Positions 5,856-61,709 of a stretch of DNA of 64,000 nt are shown piece after piece. Each line of letters starts with the position of its first letter. Positions within the stretch are counted from its first letter, which is position 1. Location: sequence record AB897757.1; one strand, given 5' to 3'. The notes under the pieces were generated by a model. The model searched no databases. It was not told the DNA's origin and worked only from the letters and a program-made list of their open reading frames with translations. The translations under genes and the position numbers were made by a program. This DNA is from Klebsiella phage K64-1.

Positions 5856-5867
5856 TAAGGACACCAA

Positions 5868-6041
5868 ATGAAGAAAAGGAATTCGTGGAGTACTCCTGAA
5901 GAATATAGGAAGATTCAGTGTTATTTTGATACAATACACAAAGAAAAATCCAGTTCAGGAGTACGAAAAAACAGAAATAAAATTAATACTAAAAAGAAAG
6001 AACGTATATATTCTTTAGAACGTCATACAAGAGAAGCTTAA
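5868..6041 (+). CDS. small basic protein (57 aa), sub-threshold ORF
   Basis: ATG 5868 after RBS aagga; K/R-rich; fills the 200-bp gap after rnlA. Confidence 0.3.
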   Translation: MKKRNSWSTPEEYRKIQCYFDTIHKEKSSSGVRKNRNKINTKKKERIYSLERHTREA

Positions 6042-7031: not shown

Positions 7032-7042
7032 AGGACATAATA

Positions 7043-34347: not shown

Positions 34348-35004
34348 ATGAATATTAAAACAACAGCAGATAAGTACTGGTTCATTATGAACCACCCAAA
34401 ATTTGTAAATAAAAATTACATTGTACCAAAAATCGAAATTGAACCACATAACGTATGTCCACAAACCAACAGAATTGAATCGTATGAATATTTGAATACA
34501 AAAGTCCAGTACTGGATTGAATTTTATATCCCAGTGCAAGAAGATGGGAAATGGGAAATTGCACATGATTACAAACTCGATTGTGGTGGCGACACCATAG
34601 ATGAAGCAATTGACTGCTTATATAATTCAGTACTAAATGAATATGGAAATTATACACAAGAAGAACTTGACAAAAAGGAGGATGAAGTATATAATTACAA
34701 CAAATCCAAGTTTGGTAGTGCAACAATGTCATATATTTTATCTAAAATTCATGAAGACATGTTTGAATACGTAAATGATAAAATTTTGCCAGATGAAGAA
34801 GCGGAATGCTATAATCATAACACGGTTGGTTATTATGAAAAAAAAATTAAAGAATTAAAAGGAACTTTAAATTCATTGATCGAATTCAAAAGAAATTCAC
34901 CAAAAGAAATGCACAAAGTAATTGACAAAGATATAAAAAACGTAGAACATGACATTTTTGCGAATGAAATGAGTATTAAATTTATGGTGGATTTGGATCT
35001 ATGA
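34348..35004 (+). CDS. hypothetical protein
   Basis: ORF track. Confidence 0.4.
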   Translation: MNIKTTADKYWFIMNHPKFVNKNYIVPKIEIEPHNVCPQTNRIESYEYLNTKVQYWIEFYIPVQEDGKWEIAHDYKLDCGGDTIDEAIDCLYNSVLNEYGNYTQEELDKKEDEVYNYNKSKFGSATMSYILSKIHEDMFEYVNDKILPDEEAECYNHNTVGYYEKKIKELKGTLNSLIEFKRNSPKEMHKVIDKDIKNVEHDIFANEMSIKFMVDLDL

Positions 35005-35369
35005 ATAAAGATCTTTCAAAATTAGTTGAAGACCTACGGAATATGCCGAAAATTGAACAAGTTGGTTCGTTTAAACGTTTCTTAGTTATTGCACGTGCAT
35101 TAGATAAAAAGGGACGTGTACTCAGTACCAAAACCAATTCATACACACAAACACATCCAGTACAGAAGAAGTTTGCAGTTAGGGCTGGACGGTGTGAAGC
35201 TGTATGGCTCCATGCAGAAATTCGTTGTTTGTTAGCTGCAAGAAAAGATGTTCATACATTACTAATTGCCAGAATTAACAAAGAAGGTCTTCCTGTTCCC
35301 GCAAAGCCATGTTCTGTTTGTGAACTGGCTATAAAAGAATATGGTGTAAAAAGGGTGATTTATACATGA
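35001..35369 (+). CDS. cytidine/deoxycytidylate deaminase-fold protein (second CDA-like gene)
   Basis: zinc ligand motifs HAEIRCL and PCSVCELAI; 122 aa. Confidence 0.55.
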   Translation: MNKDLSKLVEDLRNMPKIEQVGSFKRFLVIARALDKKGRVLSTKTNSYTQTHPVQKKFAVRAGRCEAVWLHAEIRCLLAARKDVHTLLIARINKEGLPVPAKPCSVCELAIKEYGVKRVIYT

Positions 35370-35539: not shown

Positions 35540-35666
35540 TGCGTGATCTTATTATGTTCTTTTCTGCAATCATAGGATTATGTACTTATTATTTTTCCAA
35601 TCATTATATTATAGCTATGGTATTTGCTATTATATATATTGCACTTTACAGTACTGACGACGAATA

Positions 35667-35690
35667 AAAGCACCCCAGCGGTGCTTTTTG
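35667..35690 (+). terminator. intrinsic terminator (aaagcacc...ggtgcttttt)
   Basis: GC stem plus T5. Confidence 0.5.
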
Positions 35691-35822
35691 TATTTGTACA
35701 AAATATAATCTAAGTGACTTTTTATTGATTTAAATCAAGAATAAAATCACCTTTTAGTGATATAATATGTTACGTAGCATTTAAATAAATCTACCACATA
35801 ATAAAAAAATCAAGGAAGAAAA

Positions 35823-37628
35823 ATGAATTCAAATAAATTATATGAAGATATTGAAAATTTTATTAATAATACAAATAAAGATATTACTACTGAAAATGCT
35901 AATAAAGATGCCAAAGTAGTTAATACACATAGAGATTTATTTGCTGGTATCCTTTCTAAACATTACGCCCAAGATACTATCCCAGAAGAATTTATTAAAT
36001 GGCACAATGATGGTTATGGACACTGCCACGATTTAGATTACTGGATCTCACCACTAACAAATTGCTGCCTTATTAATTATCCAGATATGCTTAGAAATGG
36101 TTTTAAAATTGGTAGTGCTAACATTGAAGAACCAAAAAGTTTTTCTGTGGCTTGTACGGTACTAACACAGATTGTGCAAGCGGTTGCAAGTTCACAATAT
36201 GGTGGACAATCATTAGCTCACATTGACAAATATTTAGAACCATATGTTCAAATGTCATGGAATAAACTATTAGAAAAACAAAAGAAATATAATTTAAGTA
36301 CCGAATTCATTGAAGACGAATTAAAAAAAGAAGTTTATGATGGGTGTCAAACATTTTTATATCAATTAAACAGTACTGTGTCCGTGTCAGGTCAAACCCC
36401 TTTCATATCTATTAGTTTAGGTTTAAGTACTACTAAATTTGGACGTTTAATTACTGAACAATATTTAAAAGTTCATGAAAAAGGTTTAGGTAAAGATGGC
36501 ATTACTCCAGTATTTCCGAAAGTTATTTTCTTTTTAGAAGATGGTATTAATACTAATAGTACTGATCCAAATTATGATTTAAAACAACAAGCATTACATT
36601 GTAGTTCTAAAAGAATTTATCCTGATTTCGTTAGTGTTACATTGAATAAAGAAACCACAGGTAGTACTTCTGAAGCTGTTACTCCAATGGGTTGTCGTTC
36701 ATTCCTTTCCAAATGGATAAATGAAGATGGTGAAGAGCAATATAATGGCCGTTGTAATTTAGGGGTGGCATCAATCAACCTACCGTTAATTGCTCTTGAA
36801 AGTACGTCAGACGCCGTTTTCTTTGACAAGTTACACCATCACATGGACATGGCATACCGCTTCTTATCACTTCGTGTAGAGCGTTTAAAAGACACAAAAG
36901 CCCGACAGAATCCAGTACTGTACATGTACGGAGCCTTAGCTCGTTTAGATCCAGATGAGACTATTGAGCAACTATTTTACAATGGTAGAAGTTCCATTAG
37001 TATTGGGTATGTTGGTTTATCTGAATGTTCTGAAATTCTTAAAGGAAAAATAGACAAAGATTTTGGATTAAAAGTACTAAAATATATGCAAATGAAATGC
37101 AATCAATATAAAGAAGAAACTAATATCGCATATAGTTTATATGGAACACCAGCCGAGAGTTTGTGTTATAAATTTGCAAAAGCTATAAATGAGAAATACC
37201 CCTCTGTATTGAATAGAGATTACATTAGTAATTCATTCCATTATCCAGTTCATTATGATATTTCAATTTTTGATAAATTTCAATATGAAAGTTTATTTGG
37301 AAATATCAGTTCAGGTGGTAATATTAGTTATGTTGAAACTCCAAATCTTTCTAATAATTTAAAAGCATTAGAAACAATAGTTGATTATGCTAGTACGAAA
37401 GTACAATATTTCGGTATAAATCAACCAGTGGATCACTGCTATGAATGTGGATATGATGGACAATTCAACGTAGATAAAAATGGATATAATTGCCCACACT
37501 GTGGTAATAATGATGAAAGTACTATATCAGTTATTAGACGTGTTTCAGGTTATCTTGGTGCACCAAATAGTCGTCCGTTCAATAAGGGAAAACAAGCCGA
37601 AGTAATTGAAAGAATTAAACACCAATAA
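35823..37628 (+). CDS. nrdD: anaerobic ribonucleoside-triphosphate reductase
   Basis: 601 aa; C-terminal Zn ribbon CYECGY...CPHCG and glycyl-radical motif RRVSGYLG. Confidence 0.9.
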
Positions 37629-37638
37629 GGAGTCAATT

Positions 37639-38001
37639 ATGACAATTAAAGCAAAACAAATTTTATCCGGCGAACATACTGGAACAATCTTTTTACACGA
37701 TGATGAATATGCACGTATTTTAGTATCAAAAACATTTTCAGAAGATGATGAAGTATTATTCAGTACTTTTGAAAATGAAGAAATGCGTGAAGTTGATATT
37801 CAAGAACAACCAAAAATTGAAGGTGGTCAACATTTAAATGTAAATGTATTATCACGTTCTCAATTAGAAGAAGCACAGAAATTTCCTGAAAAATATCCTC
37901 AACTTACTATTCGTGTTTCTGGATATGCAGTTCGTTTTAATTCTCTTACGAAAGAACAACAAAATGATGTAATTTCACGAACTTTCACTACTAAGTTCTA
38001 A
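37639..38001 (+). CDS. grcA: autonomous glycyl-radical cofactor (GrcA/YfiD-like spare-part protein)
   Basis: C-terminal half [11 protein letters not shown]...[30 protein letters not shown] is nearly identical to E. coli GrcA; start moved to ATG 37639 (RBS ggag). Confidence 0.75.
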
Positions 38002-38005
38002 TCTA

Positions 38006-38353
38006 ATGTTTTTTGAATATGATGATGAAAATATATATCCAATTGTGGTTAATAAGTATAAAGAACCATATGATGTATATATTGGAAGAGGTTCAAAATG
38101 GGGTAATCCGTTTACTCACATAAAAAATCGTGATACGAAAGCTGAGTTTATTGTCAATACCAGAGAAGAATCTATTTCAAAATATAGAGAATGGATATTT
38201 AATAAAATTGAAAATGGTGAAATTACCATTGATGAGTTACTAGAATTATCTGGTAAAAAATTAGGATGTTTTTGTAAGCCTAAATCATGTCATGGTGATG
38301 TTCTTGTGGAAATAGTGAGTGCGTTATTAGATGAATTATCAAACAATAATTAA
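38006..38353 (+). CDS. DUF4326-like conserved hypothetical protein
   Basis: YDVYIGRGSKWGNPF ... LGCFCKP..CHGDVL signature. Confidence 0.4.
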   Translation: MFFEYDDENIYPIVVNKYKEPYDVYIGRGSKWGNPFTHIKNRDTKAEFIVNTREESISKYREWIFNKIENGEITIDELLELSGKKLGCFCKPKSCHGDVLVEIVSALLDELSNNN

Positions 38354-38801
38354 AGATGACTTAATAAATGGGGAGGGAGTTAGATGCTCCCTTTTTGTTT
38401 CGGGTTGTTCAATGGGTTGTAAAAATTGCTACAATGAAAAAGCATGGGATTATAGAAGCGGTACTGAATTCGGTACTGAACATGTCGAGCTTATACTAAA
38501 CGAATTATCTAAATCATATATATCAGGATTATCATTACTTGGTGGTGATCCACTTATGCCTAAAAATTTCAGTACTGTGATTGAACTTTGTAAAATTGTT
38601 AAAGAACAGTATCCTGACAAAAATATTTGGTGTTGGAGTGGTTACACACTTGATGAAATTATAAATAATCATGCGGCCCCTGTATTAGAATATATTGATG
38701 TTCTAATTGATGGAAAATTCAAAGAAGAACTAAAAGATTTATCTCTACCATATAGAGGCTCTAGAAATCAACGTATTTTATATAAAGGGAAAGATTTTTG
38801 A
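38331..38801 (+). CDS. nrdG: anaerobic RNR activating enzyme (radical SAM)
   Basis: CSLFVSGCSMGCKNCYN radical-SAM cysteine motif; size 156 aa. Confidence 0.8.
   Translation: MNYQTIIKDDLINGEGVRCSLFVSGCSMGCKNCYNEKAWDYRSGTEFGTEHVELILNELSKSYISGLSLLGGDPLMPKNFSTVIELCKIVKEQYPDKNIWCWSGYTLDEIINNHAAPVLEYIDVLIDGKFKEELKDLSLPYRGSRNQRILYKGKDF
38460..38480. repeat. tandem variant GGTACTGAA-TTC-GGTACTGAA
   Basis: direct duplication of the TTCGGTACTGAA variant (also forms the 29318-29349 hairpin arms), inside nrdG. Confidence 0.8.
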
Positions 38802-38962
38802 TGAAATATAGTGATCTAATTACTGAAAAAATTCGTAAACGTGGTGATAAATGGGAAGTGACCGATAGTACTGGTAAAAAGGTATTAGGTACACACCCAA
38901 CACGTGAAGAAGCACTTAAACAACTCCGTGCAGTAGAATGGTCTAAGCACAGTGGTAAATAA
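38801..38962 (+). CDS. small hypothetical protein (53 aa, sub-threshold)
   Basis: TGATG coupling to nrdG; ends just before the bidirectional terminator. Confidence 0.3.
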   Translation: MKYSDLITEKIRKRGDKWEVTDSTGKKVLGTHPTREEALKQLRAVEWSKHSGK

Positions 38963-38966
38963 TAAA

Positions 38967-38990
38967 AGCCTCCATATGGAGGCTTTTTTA
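38967..38990. terminator. bidirectional terminator (agcctcc/ggaggct plus T6) between early block and convergent tailspike block
   Basis: 7-bp stem, atat loop, A-run upstream and T-run downstream. Confidence 0.65.
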
Positions 38991-41201
38991 TTAGCTATTG
39001 AATGATATTACATAATCAAAATCAGCGTGGAAAGAAAAATCAAAAGTTCCTGCTGGATGTGAAAATGAGGTTCCTGCACTATCTTTTAAAATTGTTAATA
39101 CATCAGTACTTGGAGTAACTAATGGTATTAATGTCACACCAGTTGCCTGTGGAGTAAACACACTACCTTTTGTATATCCAGTTTGAATTGAGCTTGAAAT
39201 AAATGGTAAACCAGATATTCTAAATGGTCCAGCCGTATTAATAGTCAAATTACTATTTCTCAATCTTATATGTATTCTGATTATATCACCGAATCTGTGA
39301 TATATACCAGTTGCTTCCGTTAGAGTTATATAACTTCCTGCAATTTGAAGTACAGGAGTAAATGTTCCATAATCATATTTAAATTGTGCATTTGATGAAG
39401 TGAATACCAACGGTTGAACAAATGCATATGAACTATTGAAAACGTATTTGCTTACCCAACTATTTTTAAACTCCTGAAGGGTTAACATTGAATAACTACT
39501 AGTATCATCTGATCTTCTATATTGTCTATGTATTTGACCACCAGTAACAATTGGGTTTATTTCATTTGAGACTGATTGTTGAACATGTCCAGATCTAGTA
39601 ACATCCATACAACCAATATTACCTCTACATACCATTGCTGGGAAGAAATTTTGTGAAGGATCCCAAGGGTCTACGTTATCTACATTAAAACGATTACCGG
39701 TTGTATTACCGGCAGCATAATTGATTATACCAACTCTTTCTAAAATTACATTTCCTATTTTACTATTACCTACCCATGAACCTGATTGTGATGTATGATA
39801 AAATGGAGTTCTCGGAGACCACATTATTTTGGCTTCTAAAATATTACAATTTAATATTTCACGACCATATCTTGAATATACAGTTTTGGCACGACCTGTT
39901 ATTCCTTTATATTCACCCAACGGCCATACACCAGTTTGTTTATTATTTGATAATCTACCACCATTTGCGGTTGTTATGGAATTAGCAGTTTTAAAAAAAT
40001 ATGTATTAAAAAAATTATCCAGTGAAGAATATGCAGTATGCGTGAAATTAAGACTTGTATCACCATAATAGTGATATTTTTCAGTGAAACTAGAATCATT
40101 CCATCCTGCTCTATAAATGTCTGATGCAGGATATGGTGGTAAATAAGTTGATGCATAAGCATAGTTTCTTGTTAGCCATTGCCCACCAAATACATCACCT
40201 GCTATATTATACCATAATTTAATAAATCCTCTTTCAACTGCGTCTTCACCTTGAAATATCCCGGTTATTCCACAACTTGAAATTTGTAAATTATCCTCAG
40301 TTGAAAATGCACTAATTCCTTCACATAATCTACCAATCATAAATCCTGATATATTTAAATCATGCATATGATATCTTACATAACCATCTTTTCCAGAATC
40401 ACCAGAAATAAAAACACCAATTGTTCCATTTAAATCATATGGCCCACTAGTTTTGCTCCAATTACCACGAATACCAGTAGTTTGCATATTTGTTCCAATT
40501 ATAACAGAATCGTTGTATAGTCTAATTGCTGCCCTCATTGTATAAATTGGTTCTGGATCTATATTTTGATCAGTTCCGGCAGTTATCCATCCCGGATAAA
40601 CAGTACCGTCATCTCTTGGTAATTCATAAGTTTGTGGAAATGTTATACATGGATATCTTTGTGACAATACAACTGGTAAATTATTAGTTTTTCCATAATC
40701 AATTGCCGCTTGTAAATAAGGAACTGCATCTAATGTAGTTCCATGTATATATTTTTCATTATTAATGACAAACATTTCTGGAGTTATAAATTTTAATGCA
40801 TCTTTTAATACTCCACCAGTATCAAGTGTTATATTATTTGAAATATTATCCAAATTTTTTTGTACTGATAACCCGTTACTAGTTCCAATTTTACCAGCAG
40901 CATCATCATTAGAAAGAATAATTTGTTCTAAAATATTAATTTGATATGATGATATATTAGTTACTATAATAATAGTTGATTCATCTACAATATTCCAAGA
41001 ATCAACCATCCCTGTTTCATTCCCATTAAGTTTCCAAATTGTTTCAGTACTGGAATCATATACAAATTTTAAACCAGCAATATCTAGTCCATCTTCTAAA
41101 TATTTTACTTCCTCAATTTTTGACCCAGTAATTCTTGCTATGCTTTGTATATTAGTTTCTTTAGAAACTGAACCTTTCGGTTGTATTAAACTATTTGTCA
41201 T
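38991..41201 (-). CDS. tailspike/tail fibre protein, anchor family A (N-terminal LIQPKGSVSKETN)
   Basis: conserved N-terminal 55 aa shared with four other minus-strand genes; G/N/T-rich beta-helix-like body; TATAAATA late promoter upstream. Confidence 0.75.
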   Translation of the reverse strand: MTNSLIQPKGSVSKETNIQSIARITGSKIEEVKYLEDGLDIAGLKFVYDSSTETIWKLNGNETGMVDSWNIVDESTIIIVTNISSYQINILEQIILSNDDAAGKIGTSNGLSVQKNLDNISNNITLDTGGVLKDALKFITPEMFVINNEKYIHGTTLDAVPYLQAAIDYGKTNNLPVVLSQRYPCITFPQTYELPRDDGTVYPGWITAGTDQNIDPEPIYTMRAAIRLYNDSVIIGTNMQTTGIRGNWSKTSGPYDLNGTIGVFISGDSGKDGYVRYHMHDLNISGFMIGRLCEGISAFSTEDNLQISSCGITGIFQGEDAVERGFIKLWYNIAGDVFGGQWLTRNYAYASTYLPPYPASDIYRAGWNDSSFTEKYHYYGDTSLNFTHTAYSSLDNFFNTYFFKTANSITTANGGRLSNNKQTGVWPLGEYKGITGRAKTVYSRYGREILNCNILEAKIMWSPRTPFYHTSQSGSWVGNSKIGNVILERVGIINYAAGNTTGNRFNVDNVDPWDPSQNFFPAMVCRGNIGCMDVTRSGHVQQSVSNEINPIVTGGQIHRQYRRSDDTSSYSMLTLQEFKNSWVSKYVFNSSYAFVQPLVFTSSNAQFKYDYGTFTPVLQIAGSYITLTEATGIYHRFGDIIRIHIRLRNSNLTINTAGPFRISGLPFISSSIQTGYTKGSVFTPQATGVTLIPLVTPSTDVLTILKDSAGTSFSHPAGTFDFSFHADFDYVISFNS

Positions 41202-41227
41202 CTACTTAACCTCATATGTAATTGCAA

Positions 41228-41235
41228 TATTTATA
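41228..41235 (-). promoter_or_regulatory. T4-type late promoter TATAAATA (minus strand)
   Basis: tatttata on plus equals TATAAATA on minus, about 26 nt upstream of ATG 41201 with RBS gaggt. Confidence 0.55.
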
Positions 41236-41252
41236 ATTCATCAAAACCTTAA

Positions 41253-43208
41253 TTATATTAAAAATAGTCTAATATAACATCTTGTTATTGTTGGTGTTAT
41301 TGGTGATGCTGTTGGATTATATAATGTTACATAAAAAGAGCCATTAATATTATTAGAAACAACTGAACATAGTAAACCATTAATATTTCCATCAAATTTA
41401 GGTTGTGAAAATGATTGTATTAAACCAGTGACACCAATCGTATCAGTGTAACTTTGTAATGCAGATGTGATGGATGCACCAGCGGCAATAGCCCCTGGAT
41501 TAAATGCAAAGTTCCAATCAATATATTTTGAACGTTGTATATATATGCCATCAAATAATATAGAAACGGTACCTGAATTTATGAAACGTAAACTTCCTGC
41601 TCCAATTTGTGATGGTTTTAACTGAAATGTTATAAGTTGCCAACCAGTAGATGCTGTTATAGTACTAGAACCAATATCAGTCGTACCATCAATATTTAAT
41701 TTTAATTCACCATTAGTTCCAGCAGTATCTACACATTTTACACGAGCTTGAATTGTCAATACTGTGTTAGAATCTAAATATTGTTTACCCAATTGAAATC
41801 TTCTAATTTCAACCAATGATGGTACATTCATTGTCGTGTACAATGATGCCATGGTGTCAGTTTGAAACATATTATTACTAGTACCAAACATGTTATGTGC
41901 TGAAATAAAATTTGGATCAATATAATCACCAACAGATGTTATGTTTCCATTACTAGTAAAACAAATAACAGGCTCTATACTTTGCGGTCTAGTACTTGTA
42001 ACATTAAATTGCATATTACCGCTGGCGACCACACCTCTATTATAAAAATTTCCAGATGCTTGTAATTTTCCACCTTCAACTGAACCAAAATATCCAGAAC
42101 AAGATAATGCGTCATTATCAATTAATTTAGTAAGATAAGCACATCCCGAACGCATACGTAATATGCCTTCATAATTATTATGATCAGTTGTGAAATGTGT
42201 AAAACCATTATTTGTTATTCTACATCTTGACATTTGCCCAAAGTCAATAACCGCTTTAGGGGTAATATTAGCACTTGTTGGTGTACCATCCCATTCGAAC
42301 TTATTACGTTCAATCCATATTAAATCTGGATTTGAATTAGTTGATGATTTAATCCAATTCCCACTACTATAACCTAATGTATTATTAGAAAAATGAAAAT
42401 TATTTACATTACTATTTGGAGTTCCAATATAATCATCCATTAATAAAATACCAGTAGTATCACTACCTATTCTTCTGAATAATGTATATTCACATGATGA
42501 TTCCATCATATCACGAGCAATAATTCCCCAGTCAGATATATTTTGAATAGCACAATTATTGATTCTCATATACGACCACGAAGTAACTTTAATTAAAGGT
42601 CCAGTATCAGTACTTGATTCACCTCGAACTTGTAAATTAAATAAACCACCACCCATTGGCCTTGTAGTTTGACCAGTACCATTAAAATGTATACCATAAC
42701 TTGCTGATGCTATTTTTTTAATAGTACTGCCGCCCGTATTAATATTAGAACCAGAATCTCCCCACAAACGTAATGTAGATGTAATATCTAATTCACCTAT
42801 CATAACATCTTTATAAATTTCACGAGGAGGAATATATAAAGATTCTGTCCCAGCTAAAATAGCTTTTTTAAATCTAGTGCTATCATCCGTAGCTGAATCT
42901 GAATCATAATCTAATAAATTTGGTATATTTTTAGTTAAACCATATGAAAATAGAGTATATGTCCCACTTGATGTTGTTAATATACATTTTACTGGATCTG
43001 AAACCCATGAAATCACATTACCATTAATAAAATTTCCGACATATGGTATTTGTGTATTATTATCAATAAAAACTTTTATGGTGGATGTATCAAGTCCAAC
43101 ACTAATATATTGTACTTCATCTATTTTAGTATTAAATTCAATTGCACATGATTTTCTAGATGTGTATCTTGATGTTGAACCTTTTGCTTGTGTTAATTCA
43201 GTAGACAT
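41253..43208 (-). CDS. tailspike/tail fibre protein, anchor family A (divergent N-terminus MSTELTQAKGSTS)
   Basis: N-terminal similarity to the IQPKGS family; beta-helix-like repeats. Confidence 0.7.
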   Translation of the reverse strand: MSTELTQAKGSTSRYTSRKSCAIEFNTKIDEVQYISVGLDTSTIKVFIDNNTQIPYVGNFINGNVISWVSDPVKCILTTSSGTYTLFSYGLTKNIPNLLDYDSDSATDDSTRFKKAILAGTESLYIPPREIYKDVMIGELDITSTLRLWGDSGSNINTGGSTIKKIASASYGIHFNGTGQTTRPMGGGLFNLQVRGESSTDTGPLIKVTSWSYMRINNCAIQNISDWGIIARDMMESSCEYTLFRRIGSDTTGILLMDDYIGTPNSNVNNFHFSNNTLGYSSGNWIKSSTNSNPDLIWIERNKFEWDGTPTSANITPKAVIDFGQMSRCRITNNGFTHFTTDHNNYEGILRMRSGCAYLTKLIDNDALSCSGYFGSVEGGKLQASGNFYNRGVVASGNMQFNVTSTRPQSIEPVICFTSNGNITSVGDYIDPNFISAHNMFGTSNNMFQTDTMASLYTTMNVPSLVEIRRFQLGKQYLDSNTVLTIQARVKCVDTAGTNGELKLNIDGTTDIGSSTITASTGWQLITFQLKPSQIGAGSLRFINSGTVSILFDGIYIQRSKYIDWNFAFNPGAIAAGASITSALQSYTDTIGVTGLIQSFSQPKFDGNINGLLCSVVSNNINGSFYVTLYNPTASPITPTITRCYIRLFLI

Positions 43209-43239
43209 TATATAATTTCTCCAAATATAATCTTAATAA

Positions 43240-43247
43240 TATTTATA
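43240..43247 (-). promoter_or_regulatory. late promoter TATAAATA (minus strand)
   Basis: inside a conserved 38-bp promoter/UTR cassette also present at 45394-45431. Confidence 0.55.
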
Positions 43248-43249
43248 AA

Positions 43250-43278
43250 GAAAAAGCCCCCAGAGAGGGGGCTTTATT
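43250..43278. terminator. terminator hairpin (agccccc/gggggct)
   Basis: 7-bp GC stem flanked by A/T runs. Confidence 0.55.
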
Positions 43279-43284
43279 GTTAGT

Positions 43285-45393
43285 TTATCCAGCTAATATA
43301 AAAGAAACCATTCTAGAAACATTAATATTTCCAGTAAATCCAGATACTTGCCATCTTGGTTTACATTTTACAGCACCCACTGGGGCATTGAATGTCCTAG
43401 ATGGTGTAGCAATATATCTACTATTACCATCTGAATAGTTTGGTAATGTTGTATCATTAAAAACAGTTCTCATATTTATTGATGAAGCAGATGAAGTTGA
43501 AATTAAATTGTCATTTACATCATACCAAGCAACTGAAAAAGTACACTGAATATTTCCAGTACTATCTAGTGCCGACAATGATAAATATAGACCTAATCTA
43601 TTTTTTACTGTAACAGGAATAAATGATTTAGTGGCTAAGTTAAAATAACCACCGGCACCAGTGACTTGTAATTGAGTTCCAGCAGTTCCACCTGTTATAA
43701 CTGTAGCAGACATGGCATTTCTATCTACACATGTATAACGTGTGAGTGCATCTAATGTTGCAGTACTGTTTACCACGGTGCCTACAACTTCATCACCCAT
43801 ATTATAACCTTTATTAAGTATCATTGTGTTAGATGGTAGTTGGAAGTAAGGATCTTTAATATATCCATTAATATATAATATAGTTTCATCTGAACACATT
43901 AAACAATCTTCTAGGTAAGGAGTTACTTCATGTCTTTGGTCTAGCCCATTGATATATACTGGGGTAGATTTTGCATCAATATGCAATCTACTAGATGAGT
44001 TAGTTCCAGTCGTATTGCTTCTTAACCTACTCAAATTAGTTATATTGTTCATAATAATAGATCTGTTGGAACCTACACTAGAACTTTGTGGACTTTCTGC
44101 TGAAAGAAGTAAACCATTGTATCCTTCCATATGACAACTCGTAAAGCTTACTTTAGAATATCCCCAAGTTGAAGTTCCATAAAAAACATTACCACTCGTA
44201 AAATCAAAAGAGCAATTAGTGAAATTTACATCAAAACCAGGCTGACTAATTTGAATGTGATTAGTTCTAGAACCACCAATTGTACAATCATTAAAAGTCA
44301 TCCTTTCGCCAGAGTTAGAACTCGTAGTATTAGGTACATAAATTCCAATTATTGTACTTTCTATATGGCAATCGGTTGCTGTAAATAAATAGGTATTTAT
44401 TGAACCAAAGGTTAAACCGTATCTTACCCCTCCTATAGATACACCATATAGAATGACATTTCTAACATCACTCATATTACTGGTATTACCAACAAAAATA
44501 CCATCTACATTTCCATCAAGGGTATTACCTAATACGCGGAAAGTACCTCCAATAGAACCTAGATTCCAACCTTTGTGATATGTTGTACTTATTCCTGACA
44601 CCTTATTTATTATTCTTATAACATAACTATTATCAGGCATACCTGAGCCATCAATTGTCACATTACCAATAGCAACAACAGAAACATAAGAGGGAATATC
44701 AAGTTGTCTTGATGGTTTGTAGGTTCCAGCCTTTAAATAAATAGCTTTTCTCCCATAAAAACCAACATTGGATACATAATTACTAACAATGGCAACAGCA
44801 GCATCCCATGCATCTGAAAAATCAACTGCTGGATTAAGAGCACCAAACCAAGCCATATCGATATAGTTCTCTGGTCTTTTCCATCTTTTTCCTGTTGCAG
44901 TGACAATAACAGTATATCCATCATCGATGGAAGTTACATCAGAAGAATCATAACAAAATATACCACCAGTAGTTGTACCTAATGTTGAATTTATTTGATT
45001 TAAAATAATTTGTTGACCATTTGTGGTTGGTTCTATTGAACGCAGCGAAGTTACAGATGATACTTTTCCTATATTACTATATCCTACTTCTCCTGTAATT
45101 TCTTGTCGCAAGTTAATATCTACTTGAGTTTTAATCAAAGCGAATTGCCCAGATGTAGTTTGTAATGTCAGTGAACCATTAGTAATAATCCATGAAATTG
45201 GAGTTCCAGTGGCTGTACCACGATACCAACAAGTTTCTGTACTTTCATCATATAAAATTGTATAAGGATCTATAAGTACTGAAGTAGATATATATCCTAC
45301 CGCAGTTTTTTTAATTCCAAAAAGACGAGCTATCGCTTCTTTATTTGTTTCTTTTGATATAGAACCTTTTGGCTGTGTTAATTTATTTGCCAT
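43285..45393 (-). CDS. tailspike protein, anchor family A (MANKLTQPKGSISKETN)
   Basis: conserved N-terminus; beta-helix-type repeats rich in N/G/T/S. Confidence 0.75.
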   Translation of the reverse strand: MANKLTQPKGSISKETNKEAIARLFGIKKTAVGYISTSVLIDPYTILYDESTETCWYRGTATGTPISWIITNGSLTLQTTSGQFALIKTQVDINLRQEITGEVGYSNIGKVSSVTSLRSIEPTTNGQQIILNQINSTLGTTTGGIFCYDSSDVTSIDDGYTVIVTATGKRWKRPENYIDMAWFGALNPAVDFSDAWDAAVAIVSNYVSNVGFYGRKAIYLKAGTYKPSRQLDIPSYVSVVAIGNVTIDGSGMPDNSYVIRIINKVSGISTTYHKGWNLGSIGGTFRVLGNTLDGNVDGIFVGNTSNMSDVRNVILYGVSIGGVRYGLTFGSINTYLFTATDCHIESTIIGIYVPNTTSSNSGERMTFNDCTIGGSRTNHIQISQPGFDVNFTNCSFDFTSGNVFYGTSTWGYSKVSFTSCHMEGYNGLLLSAESPQSSSVGSNRSIIMNNITNLSRLRSNTTGTNSSSRLHIDAKSTPVYINGLDQRHEVTPYLEDCLMCSDETILYINGYIKDPYFQLPSNTMILNKGYNMGDEVVGTVVNSTATLDALTRYTCVDRNAMSATVITGGTAGTQLQVTGAGGYFNLATKSFIPVTVKNRLGLYLSLSALDSTGNIQCTFSVAWYDVNDNLISTSSASSINMRTVFNDTTLPNYSDGNSRYIATPSRTFNAPVGAVKCKPRWQVSGFTGNINVSRMVSFILAG

Positions 45394-45421
45394 TATAATT
45401 CTCCAAATATAATTATAATAA

Positions 45422-45429
45422 TATTTATA
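45422..45429 (-). promoter_or_regulatory. late promoter TATAAATA (minus strand)
   Basis: in the conserved cassette; RBS ggag. Confidence 0.55.
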
Positions 45430-45432
45430 AAT

Positions 45433-45459
45433 AAAAAGCCCCGATATTGGGGCTTTTTA
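45433..45459. terminator. terminator hairpin (aagcccc/ggggctt plus T5)
   Basis: GC stem plus T-run. Confidence 0.55.
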
Positions 45460-45464
45460 TTTAA

Positions 45465-48400
45465 TTAACCAGACACTTGAATATTAAATGTCATATTAGT
45501 AGTCGGTGCAACATCAACATATATAGTAACTGTAGTTCCAGAAACAACCGTCCAATATTTTGTTGGGCCACTATATGTTCCTTGTGGGGTTACTTGAACA
45601 GAAAATGCAGAAATAGAACCAATAAAAGTTGATGATAAATCATATCCAATACTAGTTTGACCAGCAGGAATTGACCATTGATTTCTATAAAAAGAATAAT
45701 CTCTTCCAGTAGATGTATTAATTACATTTGATAACATTTTCATCGTTATGGATGTTGCAGTTACTGGTGTCGTTGTTCCATCAAATTCGGTATTAGCTAT
45801 TTTCAATTTATTAATTGATGTTGAATTTCTAGCATATATTTTTTTAATTATGCCATAACAATTAGTCATAGATAAATTAACTAAATTGTTAAATGTCCCA
45901 ATAGTATAATTTGTTGTCGAATTAAATTTACAATTATTAAAACTAACTCTAGTATTTGATGTATATTCGTTTTGACCAATATAGTCAACAACCGCACTAT
46001 TACCTGTTATAGTTGAATCAAATTGACAATTATCAAATGATATATCACGCAATACATATGTTAACTGTAATCCAGTCGTTGGTAATGTAAACTTACAATT
46101 AATATATTTTAATGTCTTACCATCTTTAAACACAGTATTAGATTGATCATTACTTACATCTATTCTACCAAAATGACAATCTCTATATACATCAAACAAT
46201 TGTGAATTTATTTGTGAATATGCATTTGGCATTATAATATTTTCAGCAACCCAATATGTTTGTACTATATTAGATGAATTTGGGTATGTATATACCAATG
46301 GAACACCACTAGTAGTGTCAAGTGAATATCCATTTGACACTTTCATATATTCACATGTACCAAGTGGTGAAATTATACCACCTACATTTTTTCCAACTTG
46401 AAAATTCTTGATATCAAAATGGACACAATCACCATTAACTACTACAATAACAGCATATCCAGGAGTTTGAGTTTGTTTAAAAGTCAATCCATCAATACAA
46501 AAATAATCATTAAGACCAATTGTTTGTGATGATTTAACAACTGCACATGCATGACTAGCAATAGAATTATTTGGATTAACTCCAATAGAATCAATCATCA
46601 TATTTTTAAATAAAATATTTTTATTATTTCCACCACCATTCCCAGAAATATAAAATAAATGTTCACCTATATTATCTGCATATATTCCATCTAATACAAT
46701 ATTAGATATATTATTACCCCATTGACTTCCACAATATAAAGAATTAACCATAGTAGTATTTTGAAAATATACAAACGTTGAATTATTTCCCAATCTCCAA
46801 TTTATCACTCTACCATACCAAGGATTCGTTCCTGATGTATCAATAATATTACTTCTATTACCATCAGTATATAATCCTGATACGGTAGAATAACTTAAAC
46901 TGTTAAAACGAATCATATCGCTATCTAATGGAGTTGCTCCATCAGGTAATTTAAATATAGTTCCATCAAATTTAAAAGTCATACCTTTTAATGTAGGTAT
47001 TACTACTGTTGTTATTAAAATTGTTCCAGTTGGTGTTATATATGTCATTCCAGACGTTAATGAATTAACTTCACTTTGCATTAGTGCTGTTTGATCTTGT
47101 GTTGAATTTGGTATTAATTTACTTATCAATACTTTACTATCAGTAAATTGTTTTTTTATATTATCTATTTCTGCTTGAACACTTAGACCACTTGAAGTAC
47201 CTACAATGCTAGATCCATTATTTGATGATAATAGTACTGAATTTACTTTATTGTTAAGAGTTTGCTGTAAATTGTTTCCATCAGATGTACCAACCATTAA
47301 TGAACCAGTATTTGATGATAAATCAGATTTACTAACAAATTGACCATTAGCAGTTTCATAAGTCAAATATGGATTAGTATTAAGAATTAATTTTCCTAAT
47401 ATTGCAACTAAATTATCTCCAATATTCAACGAACCATTAAGATCTATGTATTGACCATTATAAGTATAATGTCCTAATTCGATATTTTGTAATACACCAT
47501 TAATAAAAATATTAATACTTCCAAAATTATATGGAACAAAAATTCTGTTAATATTATCACTAGTTGCGGTATATGTCCAAGTAATAACATCTTTATTGGA
47601 GTCCAATTTATAAAACGGAGTAGAAGGTACATTTCCTAATGTACCAATACCAGACCAGACTGTACCATCTACCGGATATAACCAGTACTGATTTATTGTT
47701 GAAGTATTACCTGCTTTCCAAATTTTTAATGATCTTCGTGGTAATCCAAATGCTACTTCAATACTAGGTAAATGTGGTTGCCATTTTAAATTAATACCCT
47801 CAGCTTTTAATGAATCTTTTAATAAGTTCAATTCAGTAATTGATGCATAAGAACTTAAATCAGCTTTAGTAACTATATTGTCATCTTGTATAGGAGAATT
47901 ATATACAATAACGTGTATATCATCACCTTCTTGTAGTGGTGAACTTAATGTTACTTCTGTTCCATTTAAATCATAAGCTCCATTATCTGGATTTTGTAGA
48001 ATACCATTAATAAAAACCTGTAATTCACTAAAATGGAAATAAGGAATATTTATTTTATTACTGTTATTTACATCATCAATTACACTATTATACTCGGTAT
48101 TAATATTGTCAATTAAATTTAAACTATCCAAGAAAACTAATACTTCATCTCCTGCAAAAAGCTTACTTACGAATGATAATGTATTTCCTGATATTGTATA
48201 ATGTGTATCATATTGTAAAACCCCATTAATATATACAACTGGATCTATTATTGTACCTGTTATAGTAAAATCAGTTTGGTCTTGTATTGCTACTGCTGTG
48301 TAATTAGGCACAATCTTATCATTACTTAATACAAATATATTATCATCTTGTTGCATTGAAGAATTCAATGTAATAGTATTGTTTACTATTGTAAATGAAT

Positions 48401-49046
48401 TTGGGTATTGTAAAACACCATTTATGAATAAGTAATTACTATTTTTTTCATATGGTAAAATAATAGTTGTTTGATTATCTAATGCAGTACTAATATATTG
48501 TGTGTTAGTTGTATTATCTGAATCTTCACCAACAACAATATAAACATTATCACCAGCTTGTAGAGAATTCGAGAATGTTACAGTACCACCAAATGTTTGA
48601 TATGATATACCAGGATATTGCAAAATTCCATTAATATAAATTATTGCTTTTTTGAAATCCAAATTAGGAACAGTAAAAACAGTTTGTCCGGCTGATGCAA
48701 TTGAACTCCATGTGACGGTTGTTTTAGTAGAATCAAATATAGTAACCCAGTCAGAATCATTACTATTATTAACCACTCGCATCATAAGTTTAACTGGTGC
48801 TGAATTATTATTTTCCCAATCACCTGTGTTAAAAGATAGCATCCCAGCAACATTATCTTGTTTTCCAAAATTTGTCACTAATGTATTACTAGCAAGATCA
48901 GTAGTACTTGAATTATCAATTTCATTAATTGTGAATTTACCTTCAGGCATATTTTTAGAATCTGGTAATTTTTCATTATCAAATTTCACACCACCTTTAA
49001 GTGTAGCATCAACCGCTGATAGTGAGCCTTTAAATTTAAATGCCAT
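45465..49046 (-). CDS. large tail fibre protein (1193 aa) with tandem FINGVLQ-type modules and the HLP.VEVA.GL shared module
   Basis: at least five about 75-aa repeats containing [IV][FY]ING[VI]LQ ... GD.[IV].V; internal module [16 protein letters not shown]...YWLY.DGTVW shared with 53300, 56315 and 59378 genes. Confidence 0.7.
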
Positions 49047-49095
49047 GTCATAATTCCTTTTAAATTAAAAATCTATAAAGTATTTAATAAAAAAT

Positions 49096-49120
49096 AAAGC
49101 CCAAGCTGGGCTTTATTTTT
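49096..49120. terminator. terminator hairpin (agccca/tgggct plus T-run)
   Basis: 6-bp stem plus tttattttt. Confidence 0.45.
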
Positions 49121-49126
49121 AATCTT

Positions 49127-50881
49127 TTATGCACCTCTAATATAAGCTTGTATTTGTCTATTTCTTGTATCCATAGATACTAAGTTGATAGTAATAGTAG
49201 AACCATCAGATGTTGTACTAACAGATACTTGAACCCCAGTAGGTGTATTTGTACTTGGACCCCATACATTGTCTGGATATGTATCTAATTTCGATGATAT
49301 CATATTAATTACGGGTACGGTGCTTTCCCATGAACACAATAGAGGTACTGTAAAATATTCAGCTCTTCCACCTATAGTATCTCTTGCTGATATCTCAAGA
49401 ACTATTTTTTGTGGAATCATATATTGTGTCATTGCTGGTCTGCTTAATGATAATGTTAATGTTCCATTTGATGCTGCTGGCGGTAATGTTCCAGTAGATG
49501 TATTCCCCATTTTAACCAAACCAGATGATTTTTGATATGTCCCTGTATTAACTATATCAGGTAAACCATAGTTTCCGGTTATTACTTTATTAGCTATAGT
49601 TACTTCTTTCATATAGCCTAAGTTTCCACCCGAAAACGAATTTCCTGAAGCAATAAGGATTTTTCCAGTACCACCAGCACATATAATATCATAATCTGGT
49701 GTTAATACACCAGTACCACCGTCATCTACACCAGAAGTAAATCTATTACCATTTAATAAAATTATCCCAGAATCATTAATTAATATATTAGCCCCATTAT
49801 TTGTATTAGAGGATATTCTTCCGTTTCGTTGTATTGAGCAGGTTGTAACTGATACACTTGCACCATCGGCAACAGTAATTCCTGCATATCCGTTACGGTC
49901 AATCAATTCCCCAGTAATTACATTACCTACTGATTGATAAAAATAAAAACCATCGGTTCCATTCCATTCTACTCGGCACCCAACCCATGCATTATTATTA
50001 GCTCCTGTTCGCATCGCAATGCCACGAGAGACTTGTGCATTTATTGTACAATCGACTGCACGAGAGTCAATCCAGTCTTGCATTGCTGTATTATTACCAC
50101 TAAAATTACAACCACGAGCATAAACGGTTGCTACATACCCACTAGTTCTTCCTAAACCAATACCCCATCTATAAAATCCACATTTTTCGAATCTACACCC
50201 AGAAACTTGTGATGTAGCATTCATAGAACCCACTGTGTTGTTTCTACCATCAAATACAATATTGTCGAAAGTATGTCTCCCTGAAAGAACAAAAATACCA
50301 GGCGAACCAGATGCTAATCTAATAACAGTACCGCAATTATTAAATGATGCATCATTCGAAACAGTGTATGGTTTTCTACTTTGACCATACATATTGAATC
50401 CTGATGGTAATGTACATACATTACTATGTACATATATACCTTTAGATGGTGGATAATAAATTGACATTAATCCAGAATTTATTGCTTTTTGTAAAGCATA
50501 ATCAACATTAATTTCAATCCCAACTACATTTTTTATGTTGTAAATATCATCAGATGTCATAAAATTATATATAGAATTTGCGGTTGTTGTTGAAGTAGAA
50601 ACAGAAATTTTTCTTAATGTTAAAGTGCCATTAGTAGTTAATACAGTCATAATTTCGCCAGTACTATCTATACTCCATGATGAAATTGTTCCAGTTTCTA
50701 AACTTGAAATAGTTCCCCATATATATTGAGTATTTGGATCAATAAGAAGTTTTAAACCATTAACTGAAAGATTTTGTTTTATAAAATCTATTTCAGAATA
50801 ATTTATTGAATAAGTTTTAGATAAAATTTCTCTAGCGATTTCAGTAGAAGTTGAACCTTTAGGTTGTATAAAATTTCCCAT
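49127..50881 (-). CDS. tailspike protein, anchor family A (MGNFIQPKGSTSTE), right-handed beta-helix
   Basis: PbH1-like repeats (GCRFEKCGF..GCNFSGN..CTINAQ..GCRVEWNG); translationally coupled to the upstream gene (9-nt gap). Confidence 0.75.
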   Translation of the reverse strand: MGNFIQPKGSTSTEIAREILSKTYSINYSEIDFIKQNLSVNGLKLLIDPNTQYIWGTISSLETGTISSWSIDSTGEIMTVLTTNGTLTLRKISVSTSTTTANSIYNFMTSDDIYNIKNVVGIEINVDYALQKAINSGLMSIYYPPSKGIYVHSNVCTLPSGFNMYGQSRKPYTVSNDASFNNCGTVIRLASGSPGIFVLSGRHTFDNIVFDGRNNTVGSMNATSQVSGCRFEKCGFYRWGIGLGRTSGYVATVYARGCNFSGNNTAMQDWIDSRAVDCTINAQVSRGIAMRTGANNNAWVGCRVEWNGTDGFYFYQSVGNVITGELIDRNGYAGITVADGASVSVTTCSIQRNGRISSNTNNGANILINDSGIILLNGNRFTSGVDDGGTGVLTPDYDIICAGGTGKILIASGNSFSGGNLGYMKEVTIANKVITGNYGLPDIVNTGTYQKSSGLVKMGNTSTGTLPPAASNGTLTLSLSRPAMTQYMIPQKIVLEISARDTIGGRAEYFTVPLLCSWESTVPVINMISSKLDTYPDNVWGPSTNTPTGVQVSVSTTSDGSTITINLVSMDTRNRQIQAYIRGA

Positions 50882-50890
50882 ATTTTAATC

Positions 50891-53230
50891 CTATTTTTGT
50901 AATTGTTTTTCAATTCTATCAAGTTTTCTACGCTGATAGGCCATTTCCACTGCTAAACACTCTTCCATTCTGAGCATATATATTTCTCCCTCGGCTTTAT
51001 ATGGAGATAATACATTACCATTTTGATCATATGTTTCTTCTGATTCTATCCATGATTCATAAGTTATTAAGCCATAATCTTGCCAATTTAATCCTGCATT
51101 TTCTAACACTGATTTAATTTTTTGTGCTATATACCCAACATGCCATCTTGCATCGGTTATCCCTTTTACATTGATTGCAGCTTTCATTTTCCACATATTA
51201 AATTCAACATTTTCCCATGCATCAAGAAGTTCATCTGGTATTTTTTGTATATTGGATTTGTAATTTTCATCTGAAACAACAGTTACTGGATTTTGAACAT
51301 ATAAATTGTTAACCGTCAATGATGGTGAACCTATTGAATAAACAGATGTTGTTGTTGGTGTTATTGCATTACTACCAAAGACCCATTCTTGTGAACCATT
51401 AAATGAACGTATATATAATCTTCCTGAGCTATCAACCAAAATCCTAGCCATTGATGTTGTTTTGTCACCATTAGAATAAAAATCAATACTTTTTGAACCG
51501 GCGGTTCCGTTATAAATTCCAAGCTGAATACTACCATTGGTTTTTATTTGTCCGGTATTAGTAAAAGACAAAATATCTGTAGGTGTAACACTATAATCAG
51601 TTGATGTAGTGTAACTGACAACCAATTCACCATTATCATTCACAGTTAATATATGATTTTTATTGCATATATTTTTATTCGAAATTGAAATCTTTGAAGT
51701 TATATTTCTATTTGTATATGTATTAAATGTGCAATTAATTACCAAATAAGAATCATCCAGTACAGTTGCGGTGTCTGAATCGATATTATACGATGGTCCT
51801 TTATTGTATGTGTTAAGACTGTAATACGGGTTAATAAAATGGTTATTATCAAAAATGATGTTTTTACTGTTTCCTGTTATTTTAATTGATTTAACGTCAG
51901 TACTTGAATAAGCAGTTAAGCGATTCGTTGTTACTTGGCGGCAATTTTTGAAATTTATATTATAACAAGCTTCGATATAACCTAATCGATAATTGGTATC
52001 AACTGCCGAACCATTTTGTGAAAATATAGTTCCATAAAAATTAACATTAAAACAGTTTTTTAAATTATAACATTTAGCTTTTAAATTATGAGTTTCTATA
52101 TGCCCACCAAATACATTTATTGCATGATGTGGATAAGTACTATTAATTGATGAAGCATTGAATAAAATTGCATTATCAGCATTCGAGGTTTCAATTGTTG
52201 GTCTAATAAACGTTATTTGGTTTGAATCATCTCCACTACCATCACCAGTTGTACCACCATTTGCTGGGCCAGTATAAACTTCAAAAGTAAATCCATAAGA
52301 AACATCAGATGTTGATTGCATATTTGAAATATTTTGTATAAAGATATCTTCAAAAGTACTATCAAATAATAAATTAGCTACTACACCTCGTGCAAATCCA
52401 GAAAAACCTACACAACGCCAATTACTATGTACCACTGGCAGCCAGGCAGTTGAACTTCCTAGTACTGCACCAGTTTGATATGAAGCACCAGATCTAAATC
52501 CAATATTAATTAAATTTATTTTACATTGTGTTGCAGTAAAAGCATTTTGACCTTGTGTAATTGGTTGTAGAACAGTAGAAGTCATACCAGAACCAATTAA
52601 AGTATAACATGTACTCAAAGATCCAGTACTGTTTAAATATTTTGTGAATTTCATTTCAGTACTGTACTGAAAAACTCCAGGAGGAAAAACGATTGGCATT
52701 ACACCGTACATTTGTGAATTCACCGCTGTTTGTGGAATATATGATTGTACATAAGAAATAGCAGCATCCAATGCAGGAGACCAATCCCAAGTTTCCATAT
52801 CATTTAAATTTGGTTTACTTGTAATTAAATGTTGGAATTCCATAATAGACACAAAATTGCTATTCATATAACCAGCAACTGATTCGATTGATGATAAAGA
52901 ATCATTAATTTTTTTTCTTTGGTATCCTATTTTAAGGGAAGTATCTGGATTACTTAATCCTATTTTTAATAAAGTATAAGTACTGAAATCAGTGGTTAAT
53001 ATCAAATTACCATCACTATTCAGATTCCATGTTTGTGGATTTCCTTTAGCATTCCCAACATAAAAAACCATCTCAGAAATAGGATCAAAAACAACAATAT
53101 ATGTATCAATTAATATTTCAGTACTTAAATATTCAACTTCGGAAAATTTTAATCCCAAACTTAATGCTATGCTATTTTTATTTGTTTCTTTAGAAACAGA
53201 GCCTTTTGGTTGAATTAATCCGTTTATCAT
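50891..53230 (-). CDS. tailspike protein, anchor family A, with C-terminal intramolecular chaperone (peptidase S74-like) domain
   Basis: N-terminus MINGLIQPKGSVSKETN; C-terminal VSDENYKSNIQKIP ... YGLITYESWIE ... LRMEECLAVEMAYQRRKL resembles the endosialidase/T5 L-fibre autocleaving chaperone. Confidence 0.75.
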   Translation of the reverse strand: MINGLIQPKGSVSKETNKNSIALSLGLKFSEVEYLSTEILIDTYIVVFDPISEMVFYVGNAKGNPQTWNLNSDGNLILTTDFSTYTLLKIGLSNPDTSLKIGYQRKKINDSLSSIESVAGYMNSNFVSIMEFQHLITSKPNLNDMETWDWSPALDAAISYVQSYIPQTAVNSQMYGVMPIVFPPGVFQYSTEMKFTKYLNSTGSLSTCYTLIGSGMTSTVLQPITQGQNAFTATQCKINLINIGFRSGASYQTGAVLGSSTAWLPVVHSNWRCVGFSGFARGVVANLLFDSTFEDIFIQNISNMQSTSDVSYGFTFEVYTGPANGGTTGDGSGDDSNQITFIRPTIETSNADNAILFNASSINSTYPHHAINVFGGHIETHNLKAKCYNLKNCFNVNFYGTIFSQNGSAVDTNYRLGYIEACYNINFKNCRQVTTNRLTAYSSTDVKSIKITGNSKNIIFDNNHFINPYYSLNTYNKGPSYNIDSDTATVLDDSYLVINCTFNTYTNRNITSKISISNKNICNKNHILTVNDNGELVVSYTTSTDYSVTPTDILSFTNTGQIKTNGSIQLGIYNGTAGSKSIDFYSNGDKTTSMARILVDSSGRLYIRSFNGSQEWVFGSNAITPTTTSVYSIGSPSLTVNNLYVQNPVTVVSDENYKSNIQKIPDELLDAWENVEFNMWKMKAAINVKGITDARWHVGYIAQKIKSVLENAGLNWQDYGLITYESWIESEETYDQNGNVLSPYKAEGEIYMLRMEECLAVEMAYQRRKLDRIEKQLQK
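52655..52671. repeat. compound 17-bp palindrome TTCAGTAC-T-GTACTGAA
   Basis: two overlapping motif halves around a central T, inside the tailspike gene 50891..53230. Confidence 0.85.
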
Positions 53231-53259
53231 TACATTAACCTCAATTTACAATATACTAA

Positions 53260-53267
53260 TATTTATA
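53260..53267 (-). promoter_or_regulatory. late promoter TATAAATA (minus strand)
   Basis: about 30 nt upstream of ATG 53230, RBS gaggt. Confidence 0.5.
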
Positions 53268-53270
53268 ATA

Positions 53271-53299
53271 AAAAAGCCCCCATAAGGAGGCTTTTTTTA
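53271..53299. terminator. terminator hairpin (agccccc/ggaggct, one mismatch) plus T7
   Basis: GC stem plus T-run. Confidence 0.45.
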
Positions 53300-59305: not shown

Positions 59306-59334
59306 AAATAAAAGCACCTTCGGGTGCTTTTATT
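59306..59334 (+). terminator. intrinsic terminator (aaagcacc ttcg ggtgcttt)
   Basis: 8-bp stem, 4-nt loop, T-run. Confidence 0.6.
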
Positions 59335-59338
59335 TTTA

Positions 59339-59346
59339 CTAAATAC
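59339..59346 (+). promoter_or_regulatory. putative late promoter variant CTAAATAC
   Basis: between terminator and ATG 59378 (RBS cgagg). Confidence 0.35.
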
Positions 59347-59377
59347 ATAATAAAATCTTTATAACGAGGTTTATTAA

Positions 59378-61681: not shown

Positions 61682-61709
61682 TTAATAAAATAAATAGGAT
61701 TTATCAATT

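Follow-up and report, generated by a model that had tools for sequence, protein, structure and literature searches.

The gene studied here occupies positions 37639-38001 of a 64,000-nt stretch of Klebsiella phage K64-1 DNA (AB897757.1; the whole stretch is referred to below as the window), within a (+) strand unit that encodes an anaerobic ribonucleotide reductase (RNR), NrdD, and its activase, NrdG (Table 1). RaK2-group Klebsiella jumbo phages (Alcyoneusvirus) match positions 35800-38970 of the window at 97% nucleotide identity. An earlier note on this DNA had placed the gene between nrdD and nrdG, directly before the latter; the first part of that description held, but a DUF4326 gene (38006-38353) was found to intervene before nrdG.

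Gene order and boundaries of the nrdD-grcA-nrdG unit

Table 1. Positions of features in the window and, in the last five lines, of genes from other genomes that were compared with them.
Feature	Position	Strand	Remarks
Terminator-like hairpin and T-run	35666-35688	+	9-bp stem, 4 GC pairs; ends the upstream transcription unit
Extended -10-like element TGaTATAAT	35758-35766	+	In the 156-nt gap 5′ of nrdD; read by eye
nrdD, class III (anaerobic) RNR catalytic subunit	35823-37628	+	NF006732, 768 bits, above cutoff
Ribosome-binding site AAGGAG	37627-37632	+	6 nt 5′ of the grcA ATG; overlaps the nrdD stop codon
grcA, orthologue of T4 vs.6 (Y06I)	37639-38001	+	ATG start, 120 aa, TAA stop at 37999-38001; 10-nt gap after nrdD
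grcA N half, residues 1-60	37639-37818	+	Diverged GrcA N-terminal region
grcA C-terminal glycyl-radical domain, residues 61-120	37819-37998	+	Corresponds to PflB 700-759
Codon of radical glycine G95	37921-37923	+	Within RVSGYAV
DUF4326 gene, like T4 NrdA.1 (phrog_464)	38006-38353	+	4-nt gap after grcA
nrdG, radical-SAM activase of NrdD	38331-38801	+	TIGR02491, 193.5 bits (cutoff 126.1); 23-nt overlap with the DUF4326 gene
54-aa ORF, TTG start	38798-38962	+	4-nt overlap with the nrdG stop; last gene of the unit
Palindromic terminator-like hairpin	38964-38987	.	10-bp stem, 5 GC pairs
T4 vs.6 (NC_000866.4; locus L088)	5558-5920	-	
Shfl2 vs.6 (locus L005)	4001-4363		
E. coli grcA (locus L001)	4067-4450	-	
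Intervening ORFs, Asterius-like relative (locus L009)	4917-5996, 6368-6814		
Intervening ORFs, Asterius-like relative (locus L010)	5583-5999, 6368-7579		

The terminator-like hairpin upstream of nrdD sets the limit of the nrdD-grcA-nrdG unit on its 5′ side, and the palindromic one downstream separates this (+) unit from a (-) tail-spike gene, which runs toward it and ends at 38991. Five terminator-like sites were found, against 0.9 expected. A scan for sigma-70 promoters returned 16 matches, fewer than were obtained with shuffled sequence (24), and the two-hexamer scan did not pick up the TGaTATAAT element at 35758-35766. Because the sigma-70 scan performed more poorly than shuffled sequence, we made no promoter call other than this -10-like motif, which we list as a candidate promoter with low confidence. 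The grcA product and its jumbo-phage homologues have their first residues, MTIK(A/S), in common. The 54-aa ORF that closes the unit is kept in phages (phrog_3684, 4.7e-20), and its match to DUF2188 was weak.

Just upstream of the unit, at 35001-35369 on the (+) strand, we observed a dCMP deaminase-like gene (Pfam dCMP_cyt_deam_1, 1.2e-6), the counterpart of which is annotated in Muenster as deoxycytidylate deaminase. The neighborhood is thus a block of nucleotide-metabolism genes. Ten large ORFs (584-1193 aa) were also present in the window, seven on the (-) strand at 38991-55966 followed by three on the (+) strand at 56315-63869, and the two ORFs adjoining the operon are tail fiber/spike proteins in the Muenster annotation. 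In the RaK2 genome paper (PMC3622015), gp522 was assigned to a subunit of the aerobic reductase, 'NrdA.' Since gp520 is NrdD and gp523 is NrdG in the RaK2 gene order, gp522 corresponds to the 115-aa DUF4326 protein, and its 'NrdA' label is probably a mis-assignment.

Family identity and the two halves of the protein

Judged by its sequence, the grcA product belongs to the autonomous glycyl radical cofactors of the GrcA/YfiD/Y06I family, as one of its phage representatives, in agreement with the GrcA/YfiD-type identity that the earlier note had proposed. GrcA TIGR04365 was the top NCBIfam model (9.5e-40, residues 16-119 aligned), Pfam Gly_radical (PF01228) was matched at 1.8e-16 with 61 bits (cutoff 22.2), and a PDB search returned E. 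coli GrcA (6owr) first (2.5e-32) and PflB next (2.4e-25). Among phage sequences, residues 3-119 aligned to positions 1-120 of the 121-position profile phrog_1209 (3.1e-54), and T4 Vs.6/Y06I was 66% identical over 117 aa in a collinear alignment (E 2e-51). The protein is free-standing: its 120 residues do not include the catalytic barrel of a glycyl radical enzyme, and its gene has its own ribosome-binding site, its own stop codon and separate flanking genes.

With 135.8 bits, the product missed the equivalog cutoff of TIGR04365, which is set at 170 bits. We therefore calibrated the model with other family members, obtaining 234 bits for E. coli GrcA, 151.1 for T4 Vs.6, 137.4 for the homologue of fENko-Kae01, 121.6 for a T5-like homologue and 105.5 for that of Aeh1. 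As the validated T4 protein and the other phage homologues tested all fall under 170 bits, the cutoff delimits bacterial GrcA rather than the functional family.

Comparisons with host proteins were made with E. coli and not with Klebsiella sequences. Of the 60 residues of the C-terminal domain (C-domain), which corresponds to YfiD 61-127, 48 (80%) are identical to E. coli GrcA, so that the domain is indeed similar, although the description 'almost identical' given earlier was an overstatement; 46 of 60 (77%) are identical to the E. coli PflB C-terminus, and the similarity of the grcA product to PflB reached E 2e-31. Forty-five positions are invariant across all three proteins, and E. coli GrcA and PflB themselves disagree at nine of the 12 positions where the domain departs from the former. 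The RVSGYAV loop is exact, and the radical glycine, the conservation of which had been named as a point to be checked, is conserved in it as G95; R92, S94, G95, Y96, and A97 are invariant in 60 homologues. An AF2 model built with 60 homologues (mean pLDDT 81) matched 6owr (E 1.7e-5; TM 0.77, normalized to the target) as well as structures of the PFL C-terminus.

The N-terminal 60 residues had been described as phage-specific. They are diverged, matching E. coli GrcA at 28% identity and the Vs.6 of Shigella phage Shfl2, which is of the T4 type, at 47%, but they are not unrelated to GrcA: the TIGR04365 alignment covers residues 16-119, and the motifs M-x-K-[GA]-x-Q-I, ARxxVxK, ED, and REVxxE are common to bacterial and phage N halves in our alignments. 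We therefore regard this part of the protein as a GrcA N half that has diverged, not as a phage-only region. Residues 1-60 of YfiD, disordered according to NMR, are required for binding to cleaved PFL and for efficient installation of the radical (PMC8683613). For the phage N half, AF2 predicted a confident beta-rich fold of five strands (pLDDT 85-91). We considered that this might represent a phage-specific folded domain, but a bacterial-type GrcA modeled with a nearly identical alignment gave an equally confident, beta-rich N half, so that the prediction is not peculiar to the phage protein. Foldseek searches with the N half returned weak KOW/SH3-like matches (E about 0.1). A bound-state conformation might explain why the predicted fold departs from the NMR disorder of YfiD, or the alignment may have produced this fold as an artefact.

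Knowledge of this family and of its phage members goes back to 2001, and the protein is already annotated, so that its identity brings little that is new. Identical proteins in GenBank are named 'pyruvate formate-lyase' in K64-1, 'hypothetical protein' in RaK2 and, correctly, 'autonomous glycyl radical cofactor' in Muenster, and the T4 RefSeq record calls vs.6 GrcA. Of 50,697 phage records searched by tblastn, 1588 contained a homologue (compared with 2910 for NrdD), most of them from T4-like, T5-like, and jumbo enterobacterial phages; a full-length homologue was present in at least 1207 records, across three phage groups. According to the account of Wagner et al. (2001) given in PMC8683613, the radical is put on both YfiD and T4 Y06I by PFL-AE, and both reactivate oxygen-cleaved PFL. 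These two are the spare-part proteins validated so far (PMC8683613; restated in a 2026 review, PMC13450708), and PFL is the one glycyl radical enzyme for which a spare part has been demonstrated (PMC8683613, PMC13450708).

Selection, origin, and linkage to nrdD and nrdG

When grcA was compared with its jumbo-phage relatives, the C-domain gave dN/dS values of 0.09-0.13, and the N half was less constrained, with values of 0.37-0.62. grcA is thus a functional gene under purifying selection. Its GC content is 0.30 (0.31 for the window), and across the 183-nt region of the C-domain it shares only 65% DNA identity with E. coli grcA, values that mark it as an old resident; a recent capture of the K64-1 gene from a host was considered and is ruled out by the same two values.

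A different picture was seen in T4-type vs.6 genes, in which the 3′ ~170 nt are nearly base-for-base E. coli grcA, with sharp borders. The match amounts to 180 of 183 nt in Shfl2, and in T4 to 30 of 30 nt in each of four consecutive 30-nt blocks. The GC content of the patch is host-like (0.50, vs. 0.32 in the 5′ half), and it looks like the result of recent recombination with, or gene conversion from, the host gene. No such host-derived patch is present in K64-1 grcA. Since T4 Y06I carries an E. coli-like C-domain, the reactivation of E. coli PFL by this protein does not independently establish what the diverged K64-1 C-domain, with 12 of 60 residues different, can do.

We then considered the genomic context of grcA homologues. 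Both nrdD and nrdG were found within 6 kb of the homologue at 4 of 80 IMG/VR loci, namely RaK2, two jumbo phages of ~355 kb and one 235-kb contig with the order nrdD-nrdG-grcA, as in Aeh1. Among 80 bacterial grcA loci, none had nrdD or nrdG within 5 kb. With 4 of 80 viral and 0 of 80 bacterial loci linked, a general linkage of grcA to nrdD/nrdG was rejected. The gene order is nrdD-grcA-nrdG in fENko-Kae01 and nrdD-nrdG-vs.6-nrdC-nrdH in Aeh1; in T4-type and T5-like phages grcA is far from nrdD/nrdG. In jumbo relatives with 64-72% protein identity, the order nrdD...grcA...nrdG is kept while the intervening genes change. The linkage is therefore real, conserved, phage-only, and confined to a few lineages.

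In Asterius-like relatives, ORFs of 138, 169, and 148 aa and one of 247 aa lie between nrdD, grcA, and nrdG, and there is no DUF4326 gene. The DUF4326 gene is thus a variable filler in the nrd operon. We also asked if the Ser of NrdD RRVSGYL tracks the grcA-nrd linkage, which might have hinted at a shared activase. This was rejected, as Aeh1-type phages have the linkage yet carry RRVCGYL.

Target enzyme, activase, and comparison with known systems

The NrdD of this phage is of the T4/E. coli formate type, with conserved TNCC, PMGC, and Asn, a Zn-ribbon, and G576 within RRVSGYLG, and it scored 593 bits against T4 NrdD (1h78). When the grcA product was compared with this NrdD by BLASTP, 12 of 25 residues were identical, around the glycine only (E 0.059), and 15 of 55 residues were identical between the C-domain and the NrdD tail. 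The CxxC...CxxC Zn-ribbon that precedes the glycine loop of NrdD is absent from the grcA product, which beyond GY has the PFL-type AVRFN and not the NrdD-type LGAPN. A match restricted to the glycine region and the absence of the Zn-ribbon indicate that grcA is neither a duplicate of nrdD nor a plausible spare part for NrdD. The possibility that the 3′ end of nrdD was duplicated in truncated form, which the earlier note had already thought unlikely, is ruled out by the same findings.

Our analysis points to host PFL as the most likely target of the grcA product. This was one of two options raised previously, and homology argues for it (66% identity to T4 Vs.6, the RVSGYAV loop, and the 45 of 60 residues invariant with GrcA and PflB). 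Given the exact PFL-type loop, host PflA is the most likely activase.

We consider it probable that the phage GrcA re-arms oxygen-damaged host PFL, and we suggest a possible formate-based reason for its link to the nrd genes. Under low or fluctuating oxygen during infection, host PflB would be cleaved at its radical glycine. The phage protein would bind the cleaved enzyme, with its N half aiding the interaction, and its residues 61-120 would substitute for the lost PflB C-terminus. The RVSGYAV loop would then receive its glycyl radical, on G95, from host PflA, and conversion of pyruvate to acetyl-CoA and formate would restart. We infer both the activation by PflA and the rescue of PFL from the characterized T4 and E. 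coli homologues.

PFL is the cell's source of formate. Formate is the electron donor of the class III RNRs of E. coli and T4 (PMC4390871). As a NrdD of the T4/E. coli type uses formate and PFL makes it, co-expression of grcA with the two nrd genes would safeguard the supply of reductant for making dNTPs anaerobically. The operon would in this way co-express the reductase, its activase, and the upkeep of formate and ATP (via acetyl-CoA) after shutdown of host gene expression. This rationale for the position of grcA in the nrdD-nrdG operon is a suggestion of our own; our literature search found no paper that discusses phage GrcA together with NrdD or formate. Because the linkage is absent in most phages that have GrcA, the rationale is independent of adjacency, and adjacency is no proof of it. 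If it is correct, the phage guards a host enzyme in order to feed its own nucleotide synthesis, and the K64-1 protein provides a naturally diverged spare part for comparison with YfiD.

A more specific, and more doubtful, proposal is that GrcA was recruited as a partner within the RNR operon, in RaK2-/Asterius-like phages and independently in Aeh1-like phages, where it may sustain the PFL formate used by NrdD; in a stronger form of the proposal, NrdG itself would place the radical on GrcA. The conserved linkage and the known biochemistry of the homologues are what suggest this. If true, GrcA, NrdD, and NrdG would constitute a self-contained module with which the phage could make deoxynucleotides while oxygen levels fluctuate.

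Alternatively, host PFL may be the target while the radical comes from phage NrdG instead of host PflA, which would make the operon independent of the latter. The translational coupling of the operon with nrdG would be consistent with this, as would the occurrence of the linkage in two gene orders and two phage lineages but at 0 of 80 bacterial grcA loci, and the presence of RVSGY in both substrates. However, NrdG is a typical member of its family (193.5 bits on the NrdG model TIGR02491 vs. 40.6 on that of PflA) and shows nothing that resembles the specificity region of PflA; the loop after GY is of the PFL type (AVRFN) and not LGAPN; T4 Y06I is activated by PFL-AE, in the account cited above; and nrdG is unlinked in most phages with GrcA. 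Taken together, these observations make NrdG an unlikely activase.

It is also conceivable that the protein is a modulator or decoy that binds the PflA of the host, or its PFL in intact or cleaved form, and redirects or damps fermentation. The N half, which governs PFL binding in YfiD (PMC8683613), is only 28% identical to that of bacterial GrcA and is under weaker constraint. We nevertheless regard this as very unlikely, because the radical glycine and the activase-recognition loop are invariant in 60 homologues, as expected of a catalytic cofactor, and because the T4 homologue restores PFL activity, as reported in PMC8683613.

The other option raised in the earlier note, repair of the phage's own anaerobic RNR, fared poorly. 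Here NrdD would be cleaved by oxygen at G576, its C-terminus would be replaced by the grcA product, and the radical would be supplied by NrdG. The place of grcA between nrdD and nrdG across the jumbo clade, and beside nrdG in Aeh1-type phages, might be read in this way; the jumbo-clade NrdD has RVSGY in common with GrcA and PFL, and reviews leave room for spare parts that serve further glycyl radical enzymes (PMC8683613, PMC13450708), although neither reports one as demonstrated. Against this, the C-domain is of the PFL type, being 77-80% identical to PflB/GrcA, whereas its similarity to the phage's own NrdD is limited to the 12 of 25 residues around the glycine (E 0.059), and the four-Cys Zn-ribbon is missing. 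Moreover, the Aeh1-type phages combine the linkage with RRVCGYL, so that the shared Ser does not follow synteny, and the two genes are far apart in most phages that have both. We therefore consider a spare part for NrdD extremely unlikely. Finally, although the gene covers only the C-terminal part of PFL and several records call it 'pyruvate formate-lyase' or 'hypothetical protein,' the notion that it is the 3′ end of a host pflB or grcA gene, captured and now decaying without a function, is already effectively refuted by the intact ORF with its strong ribosome-binding site, the C-domain dN/dS of about 0.1, the fully phage-like base composition, and the full-length homologues in at least 1207 records of three phage groups.

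Rescue of host PFL, with the radical supplied by host PflA, thus appears to be the best explanation for the gene. Beyond the known family assignment, the present analysis contributes the setting aside of NrdD repair on sequence grounds, the recognition of a conserved, phage-only linkage, and a testable formate rationale.

Comparison with known systems places the K64-1 protein closest to the spare parts of PFL. The C-terminus of NrdD (T4 NrdD, 1h78) resembles it in the generic RVxGY and a few following residues only, and differs in its Zn-ribbon and loop context, with no significant similarity overall (E 0.059). The C-terminus of PflB (~693-759; 1h16/2pfl), which is the piece that a spare part replaces, has the same loop and helices as the C-domain (46 of 60 residues identical), but PflB also has a catalytic barrel and the Cys418/Cys419 pair, both absent from the free-standing 120-aa protein. 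E. coli GrcA (YfiD, 6owr) shares RVSGYAV, the radical glycine, the predicted fold, and the N-half motifs, and differs in its length (127 vs. 120 aa), in its TIGR04365 score (234 vs. 135.8 bits), and in an N half that is 28% identical. T4 Vs.6 has the same length of 120 aa, the same arrangement of an N half and a PFL-type C-domain, and the same family profile, phrog_1209, and both phages encode NrdD and NrdG. The C-domain DNA of T4 vs.6 is nearly identical to that of E. coli grcA, whereas the K64-1 version is diverged and AT-rich (80% amino acid and 65% nucleotide identity). The two genes also differ in location, as vs.6 belongs to the vs/regB region, well away from nrdD/nrdG, while the K64-1 gene lies inside the nrdD-nrdG operon.
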